Position numbers and translations under genes: made by a program | Notes under the pieces: model-generated | The model's database searches: none | Told to the model about the DNA's origin: nothing | The model's input: the letters and a program-made list of their open reading frames with translations, nothing else | Shown here: piece by piece, positions 26,276 to 36,384 of the stretch | Position numbering within the stretch: the first letter of the stretch is position 1 | Layout of the letters: each line of letters opens with the position of its first letter | IMG/VR virus record: IMGVR_UViG_3300020411_003736 | Span: 66,381 to 130,380 of that record | DNA from: a virus | Length of the DNA stretch: 64,000 bases | Strand: one strand, 5' to 3'

Positions 26276-26307
26276 TTAGATTATAAAATCCCCATTTTCG
26301 ATATGTA

Positions 26308-26337
26308 AATTTAACCATAAAACCATATAGATGTCAA
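26308..26337 (-). promoter_or_regulatory. Sigma70-like promoter TTGACA-N18-TAAATT
   Basis: Upstream of PolB, just after a terminator. Confidence 0.55.
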
Positions 26338-26344
26338 GCTTTTT

Positions 26345-26379
26345 TTAAAATAAAATGGGGGCTATATTTCAAGCCCCCA
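26345..26379 (-). terminator. Rho-independent terminator after the TonB-dependent receptor
   Basis: TGGGGGCT/AGCCCCCA stem (26356-63/26372-79) followed by a U-rich tail on the minus strand. Confidence 0.8.
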
Positions 26380-26389
26380 AATTACCATT

Positions 26390-29122
26390 TTAGAAATTGA
26401 CCGATAGGCCAAGATTGAAGTGTCTTGGTGTTCCCAAGAATACTTCGGCATTATGAGCTGCGTGAACTTTGTCACCATACCCATTGTACTTACTGTTATC
26501 AACAGCATCTTGTACATAAACATCATCAAGCGCATTAAATAAATGTGCAGATAATGTCATATCATAACCAGCGATTTGTGGTAGTTTGTATGATAGATGT
26601 AAATCAAGTTTGGAATAACCTGGGGCTTTCCATACTTGAGCTCTATCTTCTTCACCATCAACTTCACGAGCATCAGGACTCCAATCAGCGTAATTGTCAT
26701 CATACATTTTGTATAGTCCTTGGATACTTAGTCCTTCAATTGGTTTCAATGTCAAACCACCAACATAAGCAGTTTGTGGCATATCTCCAACTTTCAACTC
26801 ATTAAGAGCATAAGTATATTGAGTAGTCATTTGTCCTACGACCTGACCTTCTTCATTATACTCCATTTCTTGATAATCACCTATTGCGTCACCATCAAAG
26901 AACCAATCACCTTTGCTGAAAACAAAGTCAACATCCACCATTTCATGTAATGCAACTTTTGCTTCAACTTCAACACCAGTATGACTTTGGTTCACACCCT
27001 TTAGATAAATAATATCAGTATCACCTGAATCACCTTGACCTGTTTCTACAGATTTTGTAAGGTTTCTATCTTTCCATTGAGTGTTATAGAAACTACCTTT
27101 AAGATTAACCAAATCACTTGCGTATTTTCCACCAACTTCAAAGCTTTGAAACTTCTCATTGTCTGGATTAGAAGCGACTGTACCATCATAGGCAATTACA
27201 TTATCCAAAATCGGTGGTTTTTCAACATATCCAACATTAGCAAATGCTGACATTCTATCATCAAGATTGAATACACCACCACCTTTCACTTGAAAAGTAG
27301 TAATGTTATCAGCAACAACTTTAGAAGCATCAACTGCAAAATGGTCTAAGTAAGAGTATCCAATAGTAGATATTCCACCCATACCATAAAGGTTGAACTT
27401 CTGTATGTCGTATTTACCTTGTAGGAAAGCACCAAACCAATCAACCGTAGTTTCGTTGTGATAAGCGATAATATCACCTAACCCAACTTTCTTACCATCA
27501 GGTGCGTTATCATCAGCAAAGTCTACATAGTAGTCTCCACCAAGTAAATCACGAACCTCACGAGCGTGTTCGATACCAGCAGTTCTCCAATCAATACCGA
27601 CTTGTACCTCTAAATCATCATTTACATCATAATTTAGTTTGGAAATCAATCCATAGGTATTTTGTCTGTTAATTGAATTACGAAGTATACCAGTTGACCT
27701 ATTCTCACTATCTGACCAAGCTGAATCGATGTTTGCTGAGTTTTCAGCAATCTCACCGTTCCAATCCCATGTCCAAGGTGAACTTGAGTACCAAGCATTC
27801 CCTTCGATAGCAGGAAATCGTTTAACACTCCCATAAGTACCTGTACCACCTCCTGAACCACCACTCCAATACAAGATTGAACTTAGTCTAACTTGGTCAT
27901 TTACATCATAGAAATGATTAAGATTGACTAATGGTTTATGAAAGAAATTTTCTCTTTCGTTCAGTAGTGTTGAACTGTACCTATCAGTTGTTCTCGCACC
28001 ATACATATACCAATATTGTTGGCCTGTGTATGATGGATCAACGGGTGCCCAGTTCTGATTGAAAAACCTACCAGCTTCATGCTCAAACTTCTCACCTTCA
28101 GCGAAAGCCTGAGTATCATATCCATCAACATCACCAGCCAACTCTTGTGAATAAGTTGCTATGTTCTGTTTATATAGGTTTTGTCCATGTCTTTGTGGAG
28201 CACCAATTGCATATAACTCAAATCGTTGGTCATCAGATACAGCATAAGATGTACCAAGATAATAAGCCCAAGCATCTGTCCAAGTACCATCAATAAAACC
28301 ATCACCAGTTTTACGAACAACAGTACCACTAACAGCAAGCTTATCACCAATTAAACCTGAGTTATAATTCAAAGTAGATTTAAGGAATCCACCCTCACCT
28401 ACTTCTTGTTTGAACTTACCACCCTTTTCGTGAGCAGCAGGATCGGTGATTATATTCATTGTTCCACCAATGGATGGTGTAGCAAGATTTACAGCTGATA
28501 GACCTCTTTGCATCTGAATGGAAGAAGTAGCATCACCTACACCATCCCAATTAGACCAATAGACCCATCCGTTCTCCATATCATTTTGGGGAACACCATT
28601 TATCATTACTGCAACATTCCGTTGATTAAAACCTCTCACATTTATACGAGCGTCACCAGCCCCACCACCTTGTTGAGTAGCATATACACTTGGCGTAGTA
28701 TTAAGAATCATTGGAATATCTTGAGAACCGAGCCTCACTTCCATTTCAACTTTATCTACAGTAGTATAAGCAACAGGTGTCTTTTCGTCAGCCCGTGAAG
28801 CCAAGACTTCAAGCTCTGACATTGTAACAGCGTCAACTTCTAATAAGAAATTAACTGTTCCAACTATGTCATTCACCGTAACAGTATTTGTTACTGATGA
28901 ATACCCAATAAATGAAGCAGTTACATCATAGTCACCTTGAGCACCAACATCAATAGTGTATTTACCAGACTCGTCTGTTACACCACCTTTATCAGTTCCC
29001 TCAACAACCACATTAGCTCCAACCAAAGGGTTTGATTCCGCATCTGCAACTACACCTACAATGGCTTGACCAAACAAACCTGTCGTGAGTAGTACAGCTA
29101 CGATTAGATTACGATTATTCAT
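26390..29122 (-). CDS. TonB-dependent outer membrane receptor with N-terminal carboxypeptidase-regulatory-like domain
   Basis: Signal peptide, PLVGANVVVEGT..G..TD..G.Y, plug motifs (NVRGF, VMINGVP, QRG..IGGTMNIIT), NALD..Y, C-terminal Phe. Confidence 0.93.
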   Translation of the reverse strand: MNNRNLIVAVLLTTGLFGQAIVGVVADAESNPLVGANVVVEGTDKGGVTDESGKYTIDVGAQGDYDVTASFIGYSSVTNTVTVNDIVGTVNFLLEVDAVTMSELEVLASRADEKTPVAYTTVDKVEMEVRLGSQDIPMILNTTPSVYATQQGGGAGDARINVRGFNQRNVAVMINGVPQNDMENGWVYWSNWDGVGDATSSIQMQRGLSAVNLATPSIGGTMNIITDPAAHEKGGKFKQEVGEGGFLKSTLNYNSGLIGDKLAVSGTVVRKTGDGFIDGTWTDAWAYYLGTSYAVSDDQRFELYAIGAPQRHGQNLYKQNIATYSQELAGDVDGYDTQAFAEGEKFEHEAGRFFNQNWAPVDPSYTGQQYWYMYGARTTDRYSSTLLNERENFFHKPLVNLNHFYDVNDQVRLSSILYWSGGSGGGTGTYGSVKRFPAIEGNAWYSSSPWTWDWNGEIAENSANIDSAWSDSENRSTGILRNSINRQNTYGLISKLNYDVNDDLEVQVGIDWRTAGIEHAREVRDLLGGDYYVDFADDNAPDGKKVGLGDIIAYHNETTVDWFGAFLQGKYDIQKFNLYGMGGISTIGYSYLDHFAVDASKVVADNITTFQVKGGGVFNLDDRMSAFANVGYVEKPPILDNVIAYDGTVASNPDNEKFQSFEVGGKYASDLVNLKGSFYNTQWKDRNLTKSVETGQGDSGDTDIIYLKGVNQSHTGVEVEAKVALHEMVDVDFVFSKGDWFFDGDAIGDYQEMEYNEEGQVVGQMTTQYTYALNELKVGDMPQTAYVGGLTLKPIEGLSIQGLYKMYDDNYADWSPDAREVDGEEDRAQVWKAPGYSKLDLHLSYKLPQIAGYDMTLSAHLFNALDDVYVQDAVDNSKYNGYGDKVHAAHNAEVFLGTPRHFNLGLSVNF

Positions 29123-29129
29123 AAATCGT

Positions 29130-29186
29130 CTCCTGTATTTCGTTAACGAAAAGGCACATTTTTCTACAGGTGTGCCATCTGCCTGT
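29130..29186 (-). promoter_or_regulatory. Candidate H-type pseudoknot 5' leader of the receptor gene
   Basis: ACAGG/CCUGU and GGCACA/UGUGCC stems; CCUGUA is also complementary to UACAGG at the RBS. Confidence 0.5.
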
Positions 29187-29208
29187 CCGCTTTTTATGTA
29201 TGTGAATT

Positions 29209-31218
29209 TTAATTGGATTCCCCAACAGGAGGTATTTCATCTACCATAGGAACAATCTCGCAAACATCATTATTGCAAAATTTATCTACATCTGCCTCTT
29301 CACCCTCAACACCAACAAAACTTAAATATTTAAGTTTTGAAACTTGGTCGTTATATTCATCTTCACTTATTGCTTCGTAGGGCATTTGTTTATAAGCTCC
29401 TAATGGATGTCTTGGTAATAACGATATACCTTTTAATCTATATTGAAAATATTTCAGAACATGTGGTAGTTCTTCTGCTTCCGTTTCAGGATCGAATGTA
29501 GCAGTACAACTTACTTGATTATCTGCCCAATGTCGTTGAAGAAAAGCGGCTAAACTGAATTGTTCCCAAATCGAAAGTTCAGCCGCAGTTCTTATACCCT
29601 CTCCAACATCAACTGGCACTTCTACCACCATTGTTGTATCCTCTGAACCAAATGCTGGTTCCACCTTATAATTTGCCTTCTTTAATGGTTCTATTAATTC
29701 TGAATGTTTTGATAATCTCATTCTTCTTATATAAAATCTTGACTCTGGATAATGCATTCCAGGTGTTGCACCTACTAAAAGTGAAACCGTACCACTTGGT
29801 TTTACTGAAGTAGTTTTTATTGACTTTGGTATAGCAAAGAAATCTGAATAAACCTCGTCCAATCTTTGAATCTCATTATATCCATTCTCTAACCAAGTTC
29901 TTAATTCTTCCATTCCATGTTTTGTAATAAACTGAGCAACACCACTAACAGAACAACCTATTCTTCTGTTTCTCAACATAACTCTGTTGGTTTCACTCCA
30001 ATGTGTTTTACCTAATGTTACAGTCTTAGCATACAAATAAGCATACTTTAGAGTTTTTTTATAGTCCTCTAATGAAGTATGATTATATGGAAATGTTTCC
30101 ACTAAACAACACAACTCATAACTTTCTAATGTTTGTTCCAAACAAGGATTACCACCCGCTGCTCTATGGTCTTTATCATCACCACCATTTTGCATACGAG
30201 AATATTTTTTCATATTCTCTAACCATGCAAATCCTGGTTCACCATTATCTGTAATTCTCTTACATATGTCAGTATAATCCATCCCAAGTTCTGCATATAC
30301 TGAATTATTAGAAGTCCAACCAAATTGTTCTCTATGTGGATTGGCTTGATAATTTTTTAAATCTAAATATTCATCTGAATCTGGATCTCCAAATACAATT
30401 TCAGCAGTTCTACGAACATTTCCTGCTACAACACACTTACCTATAAGGTTCATTATATCTACAATAGTAGTTACTGTAATTGGTTCACCACTATTTTTAT
30501 CTAACACCTTTCTCACATCTTCATGTACTTCTTCCAATGGTTCGTATCCACTTGATACTCCACCAAAACCTTTTATTGGTTCTCCCGCACCTCTTATCTT
30601 TGTATAATCAAATTCCATTGGCGCTTGACCATGAAAATAACTCTCTAATAAAAGTTTCAGAGACTCTACCCAACCCTCACGAGTATCAGGTATTTCATAG
30701 ACTTGTTCATCCCTATCCTTTTCCACCCCTTTGACTATTATCTCTCCTGCACCTTTGGTATCAAAACCAACTCCAACACCCAACATACTTGCATCCATAA
30801 GGAAACAGAAAGGTTTAGCATAGTCTTCCTTTAGTGTAGATGTAGATACAAATGCACAATTATTTAATGCAGCATATAAATTTCTTTCTTCAGTTATAGC
30901 AGTTCCCATAGCCCATAACCCACGACCAGGTGGTAAGAATTTCATATAAAACATTCTATCATACATTTCTTGTGCTGATGCTTGTGCTCTCCAAGGATTC
31001 CACCCTAATTGATGAGATTCAATCCAATTCTTTTGCATATTGTAAGTACCTTCTACAACCCGTTGTACTGTCTCCCACCATCTTTCATTTTTACCATTTT
31101 CTTTAATTCGAGAATAAGTTCTCATATAAACCAATTCACCCAAACCGTTAAATCCGAATGGTGGTTTTTTTCTTTTATATTTAGAAACAAAATTCTCCGA
31201 TAATGTAAATTTACTCAT
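29209..31218 (-). CDS. nrdJ: Class II (adenosylcobalamin-dependent) ribonucleotide reductase
   Basis: FLPPGRGLW, LNNCAF, GNVRRTAE, NPCLEQ, KPSGTVSLL, C-terminal C..D.C. Confidence 0.92.
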   Translation of the reverse strand: MSKFTLSENFVSKYKRKKPPFGFNGLGELVYMRTYSRIKENGKNERWWETVQRVVEGTYNMQKNWIESHQLGWNPWRAQASAQEMYDRMFYMKFLPPGRGLWAMGTAITEERNLYAALNNCAFVSTSTLKEDYAKPFCFLMDASMLGVGVGFDTKGAGEIIVKGVEKDRDEQVYEIPDTREGWVESLKLLLESYFHGQAPMEFDYTKIRGAGEPIKGFGGVSSGYEPLEEVHEDVRKVLDKNSGEPITVTTIVDIMNLIGKCVVAGNVRRTAEIVFGDPDSDEYLDLKNYQANPHREQFGWTSNNSVYAELGMDYTDICKRITDNGEPGFAWLENMKKYSRMQNGGDDKDHRAAGGNPCLEQTLESYELCCLVETFPYNHTSLEDYKKTLKYAYLYAKTVTLGKTHWSETNRVMLRNRRIGCSVSGVAQFITKHGMEELRTWLENGYNEIQRLDEVYSDFFAIPKSIKTTSVKPSGTVSLLVGATPGMHYPESRFYIRRMRLSKHSELIEPLKKANYKVEPAFGSEDTTMVVEVPVDVGEGIRTAAELSIWEQFSLAAFLQRHWADNQVSCTATFDPETEAEELPHVLKYFQYRLKGISLLPRHPLGAYKQMPYEAISEDEYNDQVSKLKYLSFVGVEGEEADVDKFCNNDVCEIVPMVDEIPPVGESN

Positions 31219-35622: not shown

Positions 35623-36384
35623 TTAACTATTGAACAATTTATCGAAATCATCTTCCACTTTTGTGTTAGATGATTCTGTAGTTGAAACCATTTCCTTCGC
35701 AGGTACAGTCTCTTCTTTCTTTTCTTCAACAGCTGATGGATTTAGGAAATTCTGAAGATGATCCTTCAACTCATCATATGTTGGTTCAGTGAAAAGTTCT
35801 GCGTAGTTCGCTTGTTCTTCCAATAACTTTTTCTGCATTTTGGCATCATCAACCAATTCAGTCTGATTTGGTTTTACACGAATGGTAGTTTTACCATATT
35901 GATTACCAGCTTCTGCAGGGGTTTGTCGTTCTACAACGATATCACGACCTGTCATAGGATCTGAAATATCACCATAATCTGGATCGGCTATGATACCAAG
36001 AAGTTCTTGATATACGGTTTTACCGAATCCCCAAAACTTAACACCCTCAGATTCCTCTCCACGAACAATTACAGGTGCAAAAGTTCTCATCTTTGGTTCG
36101 ATTCTCTTACCTTGAATCCATTCATCTTTGTCACCTGATGATTTTAGTTTATCAGCAAATTGCTGAACAGGATCTGGTCTACCAAAAGATTGTGGTGATA
36201 ATACAGTTTTGTTTGGTACTAAACTGTAGTGAAAAAACAATTCAATAAATGGATTGTCTTTATTATGTGCATAAGGAACTATTCTAATTTGAGTTTTTCC
36301 TGGTTGCGGTTTCCAAATAAGCGAAGCAGTGCTGCTTGTATTTTGTAACTGGTTTAATCTGGACTTGATTGCATTTATATCCAT
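35623..36384 (-). CDS. gp32: Single-stranded DNA-binding protein
   Basis: WKP...IRIVP, FWGFGK.VY, DISDP..GRD, acidic tail DDFDKLF. Confidence 0.85.
   Translation of the reverse strand: MDINAIKSRLNQLQNTSSTASLIWKPQPGKTQIRIVPYAHNKDNPFIELFFHYSLVPNKTVLSPQSFGRPDPVQQFADKLKSSGDKDEWIQGKRIEPKMRTFAPVIVRGEESEGVKFWGFGKTVYQELLGIIADPDYGDISDPMTGRDIVVERQTPAEAGNQYGKTTIRVKPNQTELVDDAKMQKKLLEEQANYAELFTEPTYDELKDHLQNFLNPSAVEEKKEETVPAKEMVSTTESSNTKVEDDFDKLFNS

Follow-up and report, generated by a model that had tools for sequence, protein, structure and literature searches.

A covarying H-type pseudoknot in the leader of a TonB-dependent receptor gene of marine T4-like phages

A pseudoknot ahead of a phage receptor gene

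An H-type pseudoknot occupies the leader of a TonB-dependent receptor (TBDR) gene in a marine T4-like phage of an abundant and uncultured type. The structure is real and confirmed: all the parts assigned to it in the preliminary description of this DNA (S1 5 bp, L1 5 nt, S2 6 bp, L2 0 nt, L3 7 nt) are found on the minus strand, and both stems covary among relatives. The window, that is, the whole stretch analysed, comprises 64,000 nt of a 130-kb viral record. Within it, the TBDR gene (26390..29122, minus strand) encodes a protein of 910 aa with CarboxypepD_reg, Plug and barrel regions recognized by Pfam and NCBIfam, and a PDB match to a TonB-linked receptor provides a structural relative. The gene upstream (29209..31218, minus strand) encodes an adenosylcobalamin-dependent (class II) ribonucleotide reductase (RNR; TIGR02505, 348.8 bits, and Pfam). 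A terminator-like hairpin followed by a T-run, found by terminator scan (26356..26379, minus strand), closes the TBDR cassette, and PolB promoter-like sites come after it, while the promoter scan found no sigma-70-like promoter in the RNR-TBDR spacer. With a terminator and without a promoter of its own, the cassette therefore depends on read-through from the RNR gene. The TBDR gene would be the one regulated by the leader pseudoknot, which is the sole recognizable control element of the cassette.

The pseudoknot core, supported by sequence, covariation and the covariance model R1 (65.2 bits), measures 34 nt (29153..29186, minus strand). Its S1 pairs ACAGG (29186..29182) with CCUGU (29170..29166) over 5 bp, and its S2 pairs GGCACA (29176..29171) with UGUGCC (29158..29153) over 6 bp; sequence and covariation define the two strands of S1 and the 5′ strand of S2, and alignments A1 and A2 the 3′ strand of S2 together with the loops. 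The 5-nt L1, CAGAU, covers 29181..29177 and the A-rich 7-nt L3, AGAAAAA, covers 29165..29159, while L2 has 0 nt and S2 runs directly into S1. The last A of L3 and the 3′ strand of S2 form an invariant AUG within the knot. In the window the pseudoknot spans −64 to −31 and ends 30 nt before the TBDR start. When the 86-nt spacer is shuffled 5000 times with its dinucleotides preserved, only four shuffles contain a Watson-Crick H-type pseudoknot of at least equal quality (5 + 6 bp, L1 1-8, L2 0-2, L3 3-10). A program that is unable to form pseudoknots, and predicts none, finds the nested fold of the leader unremarkable (z = −1.66). The helix GGCA:UGCC of the nested MFE fold was considered as an alternative and rejected: in 20 of 83 rows the U that would pair with an invariant A is replaced by C without compensation.

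Covariation and selection

Compensatory changes, which the preliminary description had proposed to look for in the leaders of homologous receptors, occur in both stems. In alignment A1, which was collected by protein homology and holds 57 distinct rows, 5 of the 11 pairs show compensatory changes and 98.6% of the cells are paired. Such values are reached by none of 500 shuffles, and slid controls are 17-57% paired. The wider alignment A2 (83 distinct rows) raises the number of compensatory pairs to 6 of 11. The S1 pairs that change do so among AU/CG/GC, CG/UA and AU/UA, while the two G-C pairs adjacent to the junction never vary; the changing S2 pairs are of the types GC/AU, AU/GC/GU and AU/GC, and three others are invariant. 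As the S2 pairs on the side of the junction, C-G and A-U, are among the invariant ones, covariation neither proves nor excludes their pairing. S1 has 4 bp in some relatives and 5 bp otherwise.

Conservation is concentrated where the helices meet. In the 40-nt A2, 16 columns are invariant; they cluster around the junction, where L1 begins and toward the 3′ end of L3, and the distal pairs covary. Four of the base pairs that meet at the junction are the same in all 83 distinct rows. In both alignments the C and A of L1 never change, conservation of its G is 90% or more and the final two positions vary freely; L3 always closes with four A, and its length ranges from 4 to 9 nt among relatives. Percentages of pairing and invariance drawn from A2 and from the sets of 90-95 leaders are inflated because these sets include matches to a pattern that fixes GGCA, C-CACC and AAAAUG-G, and these matches were filtered further for at least 4 pairs in S1 and at least 5 or 6 in S2. 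The unbiased sets are A1, 60 further protein-anchored loci and the RNR-anchored loci. One locus with only 5 nt of upstream sequence (L056) and one leader containing N were left out. Mean pairwise identity reaches 0.887 in the motif, compared with 0.588 at 103 four-fold sites, 0.586 in the 30 nt upstream and 0.568 in the spacer. By these comparisons, the pseudoknot is under strong selection.

About half of the relatives carry a further conserved element, the TTCACATAC box, located 1-21 nt upstream of S1 and represented in the window by one exact copy (29198..29206, minus strand). Of 128 distinct upstream regions, a few being chance matches to the pattern, 62 contain the word CACATA. Two roles of the box were tried and rejected: pairing with the 3′ strand of S2, since the box remains unchanged when S2 changes, and that of a repeated promoter-like word, since the window holds a single exact copy and 24 one-mismatch matches against 27.7 expected.

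The initiation region downstream of the pseudoknot

An A-rich and G-poor spacer, recognized by leader comparison (29135..29152, minus strand), separates the pseudoknot from the Shine-Dalgarno (SD) core, AGGAG (29130..29134, minus strand), which stands 7 nt ahead of the AUG. The start region UACAGGAG-N7-AUG read in the preliminary description is indeed found there on the minus strand, at 29137..29120, with UACAGGAG at 29137..29130 and the AUG at 29122..29120. The spacing is nearly constant among relatives: the distance from the 3′ end of the knot to the AUG is 24-33 nt in 91 of 95 distinct leaders (full range 24-39, mode 28), and the SD lies 11-27 nt past the knot. The spacers of 94 distinct leaders are composed of 54% A, 4.9% G and 78% A+U, with a mean MFE of −0.73 kcal/mol, and 90% of them are less structured than their shuffles. 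Of 90 distinct spacers, 53 contain UUAA where 19.7 ± 3.9 would be expected, an enrichment that, like all the counts given here, refers to related sequences and not to independent events.

Pairing with the SD had been central to the switch proposed in the preliminary description, in which CCUGUA would pair alternatively with UACAGG. This proposal does not hold across the family. A full 6-nt complement at most 20 nt from the AUG exists in only one of 95 distinct leaders, that of the window; 3 others reach 5 nt, 11 reach 4 nt and 80 have fewer than 4 nt. The small hairpin UUCG-UUAA-CGAA inside the spacer (29139..29150, minus strand), also described at the outset, is present in the window and in some relatives only: for example, a covarying version occurs in loci L003 and L004, and none in L002, L009 and L011-L013. 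An upstream reading frame starting from the invariant AUG in S2 was likewise tried and rejected; in 69 of 95 leaders it runs without a stop as far as the main AUG, as do the two control frames in 66 and 29 of 95. In the other 26 of 95, the frame of this AUG stops well before the main start, after 2-8 codons among the leaders listed.

Distribution and the receptor cassette

The motif accompanies the receptor gene wherever the leader is available. It is present in 79 of 79 protein-homology loci with upstream sequence, in 60 of 60 further protein-anchored loci and, among 80 RNR-anchored loci, in 33 of 33 with a TBDR and 0 of 36 without one. The TBDR start lies 56-77 nt past the motif in 76 of 80 pattern matches with enough downstream sequence; the other four show ~115 nt because the protein alignment starts a few residues into the TBDR. 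The distance from the RNR end is usually 16-82 nt but extends from 16 to 1065 nt, while that to the TBDR start is fixed, and the motif remains beside the TBDR where the RNR gene is ~1 kb off or absent (L088, L150, L154, L109 and L138). By this co-occurrence, the pseudoknot belongs to the TBDR cassette.

Cellular genomes present a different picture. No motif is found upstream of 80 cellular-type TBDR homologue loci. In genome_contigs (one genome each for 185,579 species), a pattern that fixes the invariant letters, and would thus miss a diverged cellular version, gives 37 matches, 33 of which lack the pairings. The four true matches are all phage-type RNR-receptor contigs in MAGs of clashing taxonomy (Flavobacteriales, Methanobacteriota, Pelagibacter and one further MAG). 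The covariance model R1 recovers one real match in the 130-kb record, followed by a next best of 9.6 bits; as the record is only 71% complete, further copies are possible in the missing part. A repeated operator of a regulon was rejected, with a single copy both in the window and in the record. The search for the RegA family gave no match, and its controls were silent too.

Among isolated phages there are no nucleotide matches and no close homologue of the TBDR, the best reaching 30.6%. The family is very common in marine data: 331 relatives lie on viral contigs, 6786 protein relatives were found among 8000 candidates scored, and resembling reads or contigs occur in marine RNA libraries. Leader bins have some depth in four metatranscriptome runs from three studies, as contigs only and with possible DNA carry-over; contigs from RNA libraries carry no information on 5′ ends, strand or processing sites.

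Possible functions of the leader pseudoknot

The best explanation, held tentatively, is that of a cis-acting leader pseudoknot of the TBDR cassette, acting on translation initiation and/or message stability without pairing with the SD. The knot would fold stably, with coaxial helices braced by A-minor contacts, and would provide the initiation region with a fixed 5′ anchor, like the operator of T4 gene 32. A putative single-strand-binding regulator would nucleate at the knot, spread over the unstructured tract and cover the SD; the obvious candidate is the phage's own gp32 homologue (35623..36384). Once the RNR-receptor transcript has been processed, the knot may also shield the message on its 5′ side. 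A ligand pocket would fit the invariant nucleotides of the loops and junction just as well, an observation that counts against the operator model.

Two other readings at the RNA level deserve attention. A new minimal riboswitch, in which a 34-nt aptamer with a preQ1-I-like pocket at the S1/S2 junction would bind a ligand that stabilizes the knot and alters translation of the importer, is rather unlikely. The clustering of the invariant A2 columns described above, with covarying distal pairs, speaks for it, as do the importer nature of the TBDR, a typical riboswitch target, and the size and topology of the knot, which are as in the smallest class of riboswitch known; lacking an Rfam match, it would represent a new class. 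However, no expression platform is conserved, the SD lying 11-27 nt past the knot and the alternative pairing not being conserved, nor is there a conserved terminator, as a T-run opens only 5 of 90 distinct spacers. With an L2 of 0 nt, the unpaired nucleotide of the preQ1-I pocket has no equivalent, and the record is without queuosine or 7-deazaguanine genes. The motif is also not found in cellular genomes outside the four phage-type contigs and is absent upstream of the 80 cellular-type homologues; this phage distribution makes descent from a host riboswitch somewhat less likely. A riboswitch class confined to phages, whose invariant junction would respond to a small metabolite, of nucleotide type or otherwise, and allow marine phages to tune the level of a stolen importer, is unlikely. 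It is also not very likely that the knot is a constitutive structural element that, with neither ligand nor trans factor, would block 5′-end-dependent decay after RNR-receptor cleavage and keep the A-rich standby tract and the SD open, as can be likened to the 5′ stabilizer of ompA. The strong SD fits an optimized initiation region, as do the G-poor tract free of structure and the constant spacing, the lack of an own promoter and the presence of a terminator suit such a cassette, and the CA of L1 with the A-rich L3 recalls triplex-braced knots of the luteoviral type. Pure stability would nevertheless allow the junction to covary, yet four of its pairs are fixed in 83 distinct rows, and no processing site or 5′ end is mappable from the RNA contigs.

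The remaining readings detach the motif from the receptor message and are much weaker. An element of the RNR 3′ end (an intrinsic terminator, a barrier to 3′ exonucleases or a recoding signal) is highly improbable: it would account for the UUUU after S2 in the window and for the RNR end usually lying close upstream, but is largely refuted by the 0 of 36 RNR loci that have the motif when the TBDR is missing, and it accords poorly with a distance that varies on the RNR side and is fixed on the TBDR side. The T-run is not conserved (TTTTCA opens 5 of 90 distinct spacers), and the terminator scan finds no intrinsic terminator at the knot on the minus strand. Frameshifting or read-through is implausible because the RNR stop lies upstream at a variable distance. 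An element acting at the DNA level, either a protein-binding inverted repeat or an antisense terminator of the plus strand, is highly improbable as well; in its favour is a terminator-like plus-strand site at 29166..29186 followed by a T-run in the scan. Many relatives lack this T-run, which reads AAAAAGCGG on the mRNA strand, and a DNA operator would not be expected to consist of two interleaved inverted repeats, each with covariation. On the plus strand the G-U cells (three in A1 and four in A2) would become A-C, and every ORF of at least 150 aa near the pseudoknot lies on the minus strand.

Phages equipped with an outer-membrane importer reprogram uptake by the infected cell. If the preferred explanation of an operator-like leader knot is true, it would be the second known pseudoknot operator of the gene 32 type, here on a non-autogenous target; the alternatives, if true, would provide a new minimal riboswitch or a portable mRNA stabilizer. 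The 34-nt RNA is compact, well defined and experimentally tractable, its stems lending themselves to a clear design of compensatory mutations, and any outcome would be of use to the study of phage gene regulation and, as a part, to synthetic biology.

Comparison with known systems

No catalogued RNA family matches the pseudoknot. The view that it is none of the cobalamin, SAM-II or preQ1 types, expressed at the outset, is borne out by covariance-model search against Rfam 15: with cmscan at E ≤ 10 on 28000-30500 and 29110-29215, no family is at or near its gathering score, and only chance matches of 7-19 bits are seen (mir-1, snoR60 and Atu_C9). The families covered include Cobalamin, AdoCbl-variant, SAM-II, SAM-V, PreQ1, preQ1-II/III, ykkC-III, pnuC and Pistol. 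A search of the published literature found no description of a TBDR-leader pseudoknot. The pelagimyophage paper (PMC7029224) does not mention TonB in its main text, and Fremin et al. 2023 (PMC10690425) mention neither TonB nor 'ribonucleotide reductase' in theirs; the supplementary set of >10,000 candidate RNAs of the latter may list the motif.

Two families of compact pseudoknots offer partial likenesses. The preQ1-I riboswitch (RF00522) has a 5-bp first stem, an A-rich 3′ loop running along it and a second short helix formed with the 3′ tail. The TBDR-leader knot likewise has ~34 nt, a 5-bp S1 and an A-rich 3′ loop ending in AAAA(A). It differs by its L2 of 0 nt, so that the ligand-pairing C of L2 in preQ1-I has no counterpart, by its 6-bp S2 and 5-nt L1 starting with CAG, by an SD located outside the knot, and by the gene downstream, a TBDR instead of a gene of queuosine synthesis or transport. 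The RF00522 model gives no match even at E ≤ 10 on 106 nt, and neither TGT nor QueC is found in the 130-kb record (71% complete; controls positive). Luteovirus frameshift pseudoknots are compact, triplex-braced structures with an S2 of 3 bp that need specific junction pairs. Here also S1 has 5 bp, L1 has C-A after G-G, a 7-nt A-rich loop passes over the S1 minor groove and the junction pairs are invariant. In contrast, the TBDR-leader knot has no slippery site in a translated frame, its S2 has 6 bp rather than 3 bp, and it lies in a spacer that is not translated, with the upstream stop at no fixed distance.

The closest parallel to the proposed cis-acting knot is in T4 itself. According to the passages of Uzan and Miller (2010; PMC3014915) on the gene 32 operator, a pseudoknot located ~67 nt upstream of the AUG leads into a tract, unstructured and rich in A+U, with repeats of UUAA(A) overlapping the ribosome-binding site. 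The knot described here precedes the gene of an outer-membrane receptor and not gene 32. Autoregulation of the T4 type is excluded because the TBDR is not an RNA- or DNA-binding protein, and a shared gp32 operator is not demonstrated, since the phage's gp32 leader, when read, and the R1 search over the 130-kb record reveal no copy of the motif before that gene. Both elements lie outside Rfam, which has no gene 32 model according to Fremin et al. 2023 (PMC10690425). The architecture of the TBDR leader nevertheless resembles the operator as set out by Uzan and Miller: in a T4-like phage, an H-type knot of two coaxial helices stands tens of nucleotides before the AUG, and an unstructured A/U-rich tract with UUAA extends from the knot into the ribosome-binding site.

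Gene setting and anatomy of the leader

The source virus is a T4-like phage of low GC content (33%), represented by a record of 130,380 nt with a completeness estimate of 71%. Its genes include PolB, a clamp loader, a DnaB-type helicase, a RecA/UvsX-like protein, gp32, a gp19-like tail tube and two Mom-family genes. Of the ORFs with 150 aa or more, nearly all share one strand, the few plus-strand ones being nested in larger minus-strand ORFs, and GGAG-type Shine-Dalgarno (SD) sequences precede most genes. The PolB of the nearest isolated phage is just 44.6% identical, and no close copy of the receptor was found among the isolated phages of the collection.

On the minus strand, the gene of an adenosylcobalamin-dependent class II ribonucleotide reductase (RNR; 29209..31218; TIGR02505, 348.8 bits) is followed by an 86-nt spacer (29123..29208) and by the gene (26390..29122) of a TonB-dependent receptor of 910 aa that has CarboxypepD_reg and Plug domains. 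The preliminary description placed an H-type pseudoknot in this spacer, and every leader piece that it listed can be read on the minus strand. Stem S1 joins ACAGG (29186..29182) to CCUGU (29170..29166) and stem S2 joins GGCACA (29176..29171) to UGUGCC (29158..29153); loop L1 (CAGAU) separates the 5′ strands of the two stems, L2 is absent and L3 is AGAAAAA. Further 3′ on the same strand come a UUCG-UUAA-CGAA hairpin (29150..29139), then UACAGGAG, 7 nt and the AUG at 29122. The hairpin exists in the window and in some relatives only. Of 5000 spacer shuffles that preserve dinucleotides, only 4 contain a pseudoknot of such quality. Nested folding of the leader is unremarkable (z = −1.66), the program, which is unable to form pseudoknots, predicting none.

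An AUG at the L3/S2 boundary (29157..29159, minus strand) is invariant. In 19 of 115 distinct leaders it shares the receptor's reading frame and would add 11–13 residues before the signal peptide. An upstream ORF starting from it was rejected, as it had no advantage over a control frame in a reading-frame test. Many metagenome gene calls of the receptor have 944 aa, 34 residues above the 910 aa of the window; gene callers have picked an upstream start reading through the leader, and automatic annotation thus buries the knot in the coding sequence. An (A/T)TTCACATAC box (29198..29206, minus strand), located 1–21 nt 5′ of S1, is conserved in about half of the leaders, including some in which the upstream gene is not RNR (L088, L150, L138). 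It occurs once in the window and shows no covariation with S2; it may serve as a site of processing or recognition.

Conservation and covariation

In viral contigs, a protein-anchored search retrieved 331 stretches coding for receptor relatives, the best 80 of which (74–87% identity) were used. The motif precedes the receptor in all 79 of these loci that have upstream sequence, L056, with 5 nt only, being left out. In the alignment built from these protein-homology loci (A1, 57 distinct rows), the pairs of the structure first described were counted: 98.6% of cells are standard pairs and changes on both sides occur in 5 of 11 pairs. None of 500 shuffles reaches the percentage paired, the number of compensatory pairs, the number of compensatory cells or the covariation score of A1; the count of further pair types is reached by 356 of 500. 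Pairing falls to 17–57% when partners are slid by 1–3 columns.

A pattern scan of viral contigs, with at least 120 stretches, added new versions of S1 (GCUGG/CCAGC, GCAGG/CCUGC, CCAGG/CCUGG, CCUGG/CCAGG) and of S2 (AACACA/UGUGUU). The wider alignment (A2) comprises 83 distinct rows, with compensatory changes in 6 of 11 pairs; A1 is the fair test, because the additional rows of A2 were found by pattern and then filtered for pairing. Read on the plus strand, the G-U cells (three in A1, four in A2) would become A-C mismatches, which identifies the RNA as the mRNA strand. Invariant positions comprise the two junction-adjoining G-C pairs of S1, the two junction-adjoining pairs of S2 and its third pair counting from the distal end, the CA at the start of L1 and the final four A of L3; a GCGG 5′ of S1 is common, not universal. 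Across 72 distinct loci, mean pairwise identity is 0.887 in the motif versus 0.588 at 103 four-fold degenerate positions of the receptor gene, and outside the motif it is 0.586 in the 30 nt upstream and 0.568 in the spacer. By this measure, the motif is kept far better than neutral sites of the same genomes. The knot is well supported as a structure.

A cassette of leader, receptor and terminator-like hairpin

Among the 120 pattern matches listed, 89 are well paired, and in 80 of these a receptor start lies just 3′. The distance from the GG of S1 to that start is 56–77 nt in 76 of the 80 and about 115 nt in the other four, because there the protein alignment begins a few residues inside the receptor. 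The remaining nine well-paired matches listed have less than 150 nt downstream, none standing ahead of another gene, and three further listed matches with one S2 mismatch are receptor leaders too. The end of RNR is usually 16–82 nt 5′ of the motif, which remains with the receptor when RNR is 0.5–1 kb away (L154, L088, L150) or missing from the flank (L109, L138).

The clearest test of which gene the motif accompanies comes from 80 RNR-anchored loci. It is present in all 33 with a receptor downstream and in none of the 36 receptor-less loci with at least 400 nt downstream, where PolB comes next, directly or past an unrelated gene about 1 kb in length. Four other loci have the motif and a downstream flank too short to show a receptor, and seven short ones have neither. 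A distant homologue used as query brought in 60 further loci, and all 60 have one copy just 5′ of the receptor. The knot therefore belongs to a cassette of leader, receptor and terminator-like hairpin, located between the RNR stop on one side and PolB promoter-like sites on the other. The hairpin (26379..26356, minus strand; 8 pairs, 6 of them G-C, and a T-run) is strong and directly 3′ of the receptor gene, and two sigma-70-like promoter matches lie between it and PolB (within 26280..26379, minus strand); this makes the receptor gene the last one in its transcription unit. No sigma-70-like promoter was found in the 86-nt spacer. The knot is tied to an auxiliary importer gene of a widespread marine phage group.

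Presence of the cassette is polymorphic among close relatives with RNR 83–88% identical (L381–L459; for example L388, L392 and L404 versus L382, L422 and L436). Where PolB directly follows RNR, the intervening spacer is promoter-like (TTGACT...TATATT); the product of the alternative ORF of about 1 kb begins MSHKLEYLWLDG. In locus L098, RNR matches in two parts (residues 1–360 and 359–657) with about 1 kb of extra DNA between them, pointing to an intron, an intein or the insertion of a homing endonuclease.

Distribution beyond the cassette

Neither the window nor the 130,380-nt record has a second copy of the knot, which its covariance model (R1) scores at 65.2 bits, against 9.6 bits for the next match. 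Scanning genome_contigs, in which each of 185,579 bacterial and archaeal species has one genome, gave 37 pattern matches, only four of them true, with RNR upstream, a receptor downstream, or both. These four (L212, L216, L229, L236) are filed in metagenome-assembled genomes labelled 'uncultured bacterium', Methanobacteriota archaeon, Flavobacteriales and Candidatus Pelagibacter, and are probably misbinned phage contigs, a caution against taking host or taxonomy from such bins.

The closest non-phage homologues of the receptor are 42–50% identical, some being labelled Gemmatimonadota, Marinimicrobia or Calditrichota by their sources. At 80 metagenome loci of this kind (GC 32–72% in 40 of them), neither the motif nor phage replication genes alongside were found. 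The knot thus belongs to the phage cassette and, as far as this sampling shows, was not inherited with the gene from bacteria. Downstream of a 47%-identical cellular homologue on a low-GC marine metagenome contig (L334, 4007..10595) lie a further CarboxypepD_reg TonB receptor and a type I phosphodiesterase/nucleotide pyrophosphatase, and in L320 the neighbour is a GH95 glycosidase; such context does not single out a substrate for the receptor family.

Possible modes of action and the T4 gene 32 operator

The absence of a match to cobalamin, SAM-II or preQ1 classes, as first proposed, was borne out: an Rfam 15 search (E ≤ 10) on 2.5 kb and on 106 nt returned no family, cobalamin, SAM-II/V, the three preQ1 classes, guanidine-III, the pnuC motif and pistol being among those covered. 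The element forms a new RNA family within a known general kind, that of H-type pseudoknot leaders. A U-run 3′ of S2 is rare among relatives, and the knot is therefore not a terminator. The preliminary description also had CCUGUA pairing with the SD region in an ON/OFF switch. Relatives do not sustain this: the full complement near the SD occurs in 1 of 95 distinct leaders, the window's own, while 3 leaders have 5 nt of it, 11 have 4 nt and 80 have less.

What is conserved 3′ of the knot is an architecture, not a pairing partner. The AUG lies 24–33 nt from the 3′ end of the knot in 91 of 95 leaders (mode 28). The tract between knot and SD core (11–27 nt) is 54% A and 4.9% G, versus 21% G on the same strand of the window; it folds weakly (mean −0.73 kcal/mol), with less structure than shuffles in 90% of 94 leaders, is enriched in UUAA (53 of 90, versus 19.7 ± 3.9 expected) and is followed by a strong AGGAG.

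The best reading is an anchor like that of the gp32 operator. The stably folded knot would mark the 5′ edge of the initiation region, and control would act on the open tract through a single-strand-binding regulator, for example the phage's gp32 homologue, or through ribosome access. The knot would also shield the processed message. Only the anatomy is established; the trans-acting factor is inferred. One live rival is a small-molecule riboswitch, the putative pocket of which would lie at the invariant junction. Neither TGT nor QueC was found in the 71%-complete record, so a 7-deazapurine link is without support. Another live rival is a purely constitutive stabiliser or enhancer.

Against the gp32-operator-like anchor stand two points: the phage's own gene 32 leader has no such knot, by an R1 search of the record and a reading of that leader, and the receptor, unlike the target of the T4 operator, is not a nucleic-acid-binding protein. 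Uzan and Miller (2010; PMC3014915) describe the translational operator of T4 gene 32 as a pseudoknot about 67 nt 5′ of the AUG and an unstructured, A+U-rich tract that has UUAA(A) repeats and overlaps with the ribosome-binding site, gp32 nucleating at the knot and then spreading cooperatively along the tract. Work cited in that review reportedly concerns the processing of gene 32 transcripts by RNase E to a stable species. In favour of the gp32-operator-like anchor, the receptor leader has the same layout, with an upstream knot, an unstructured UUAA-rich tract and a ribosome-binding site.
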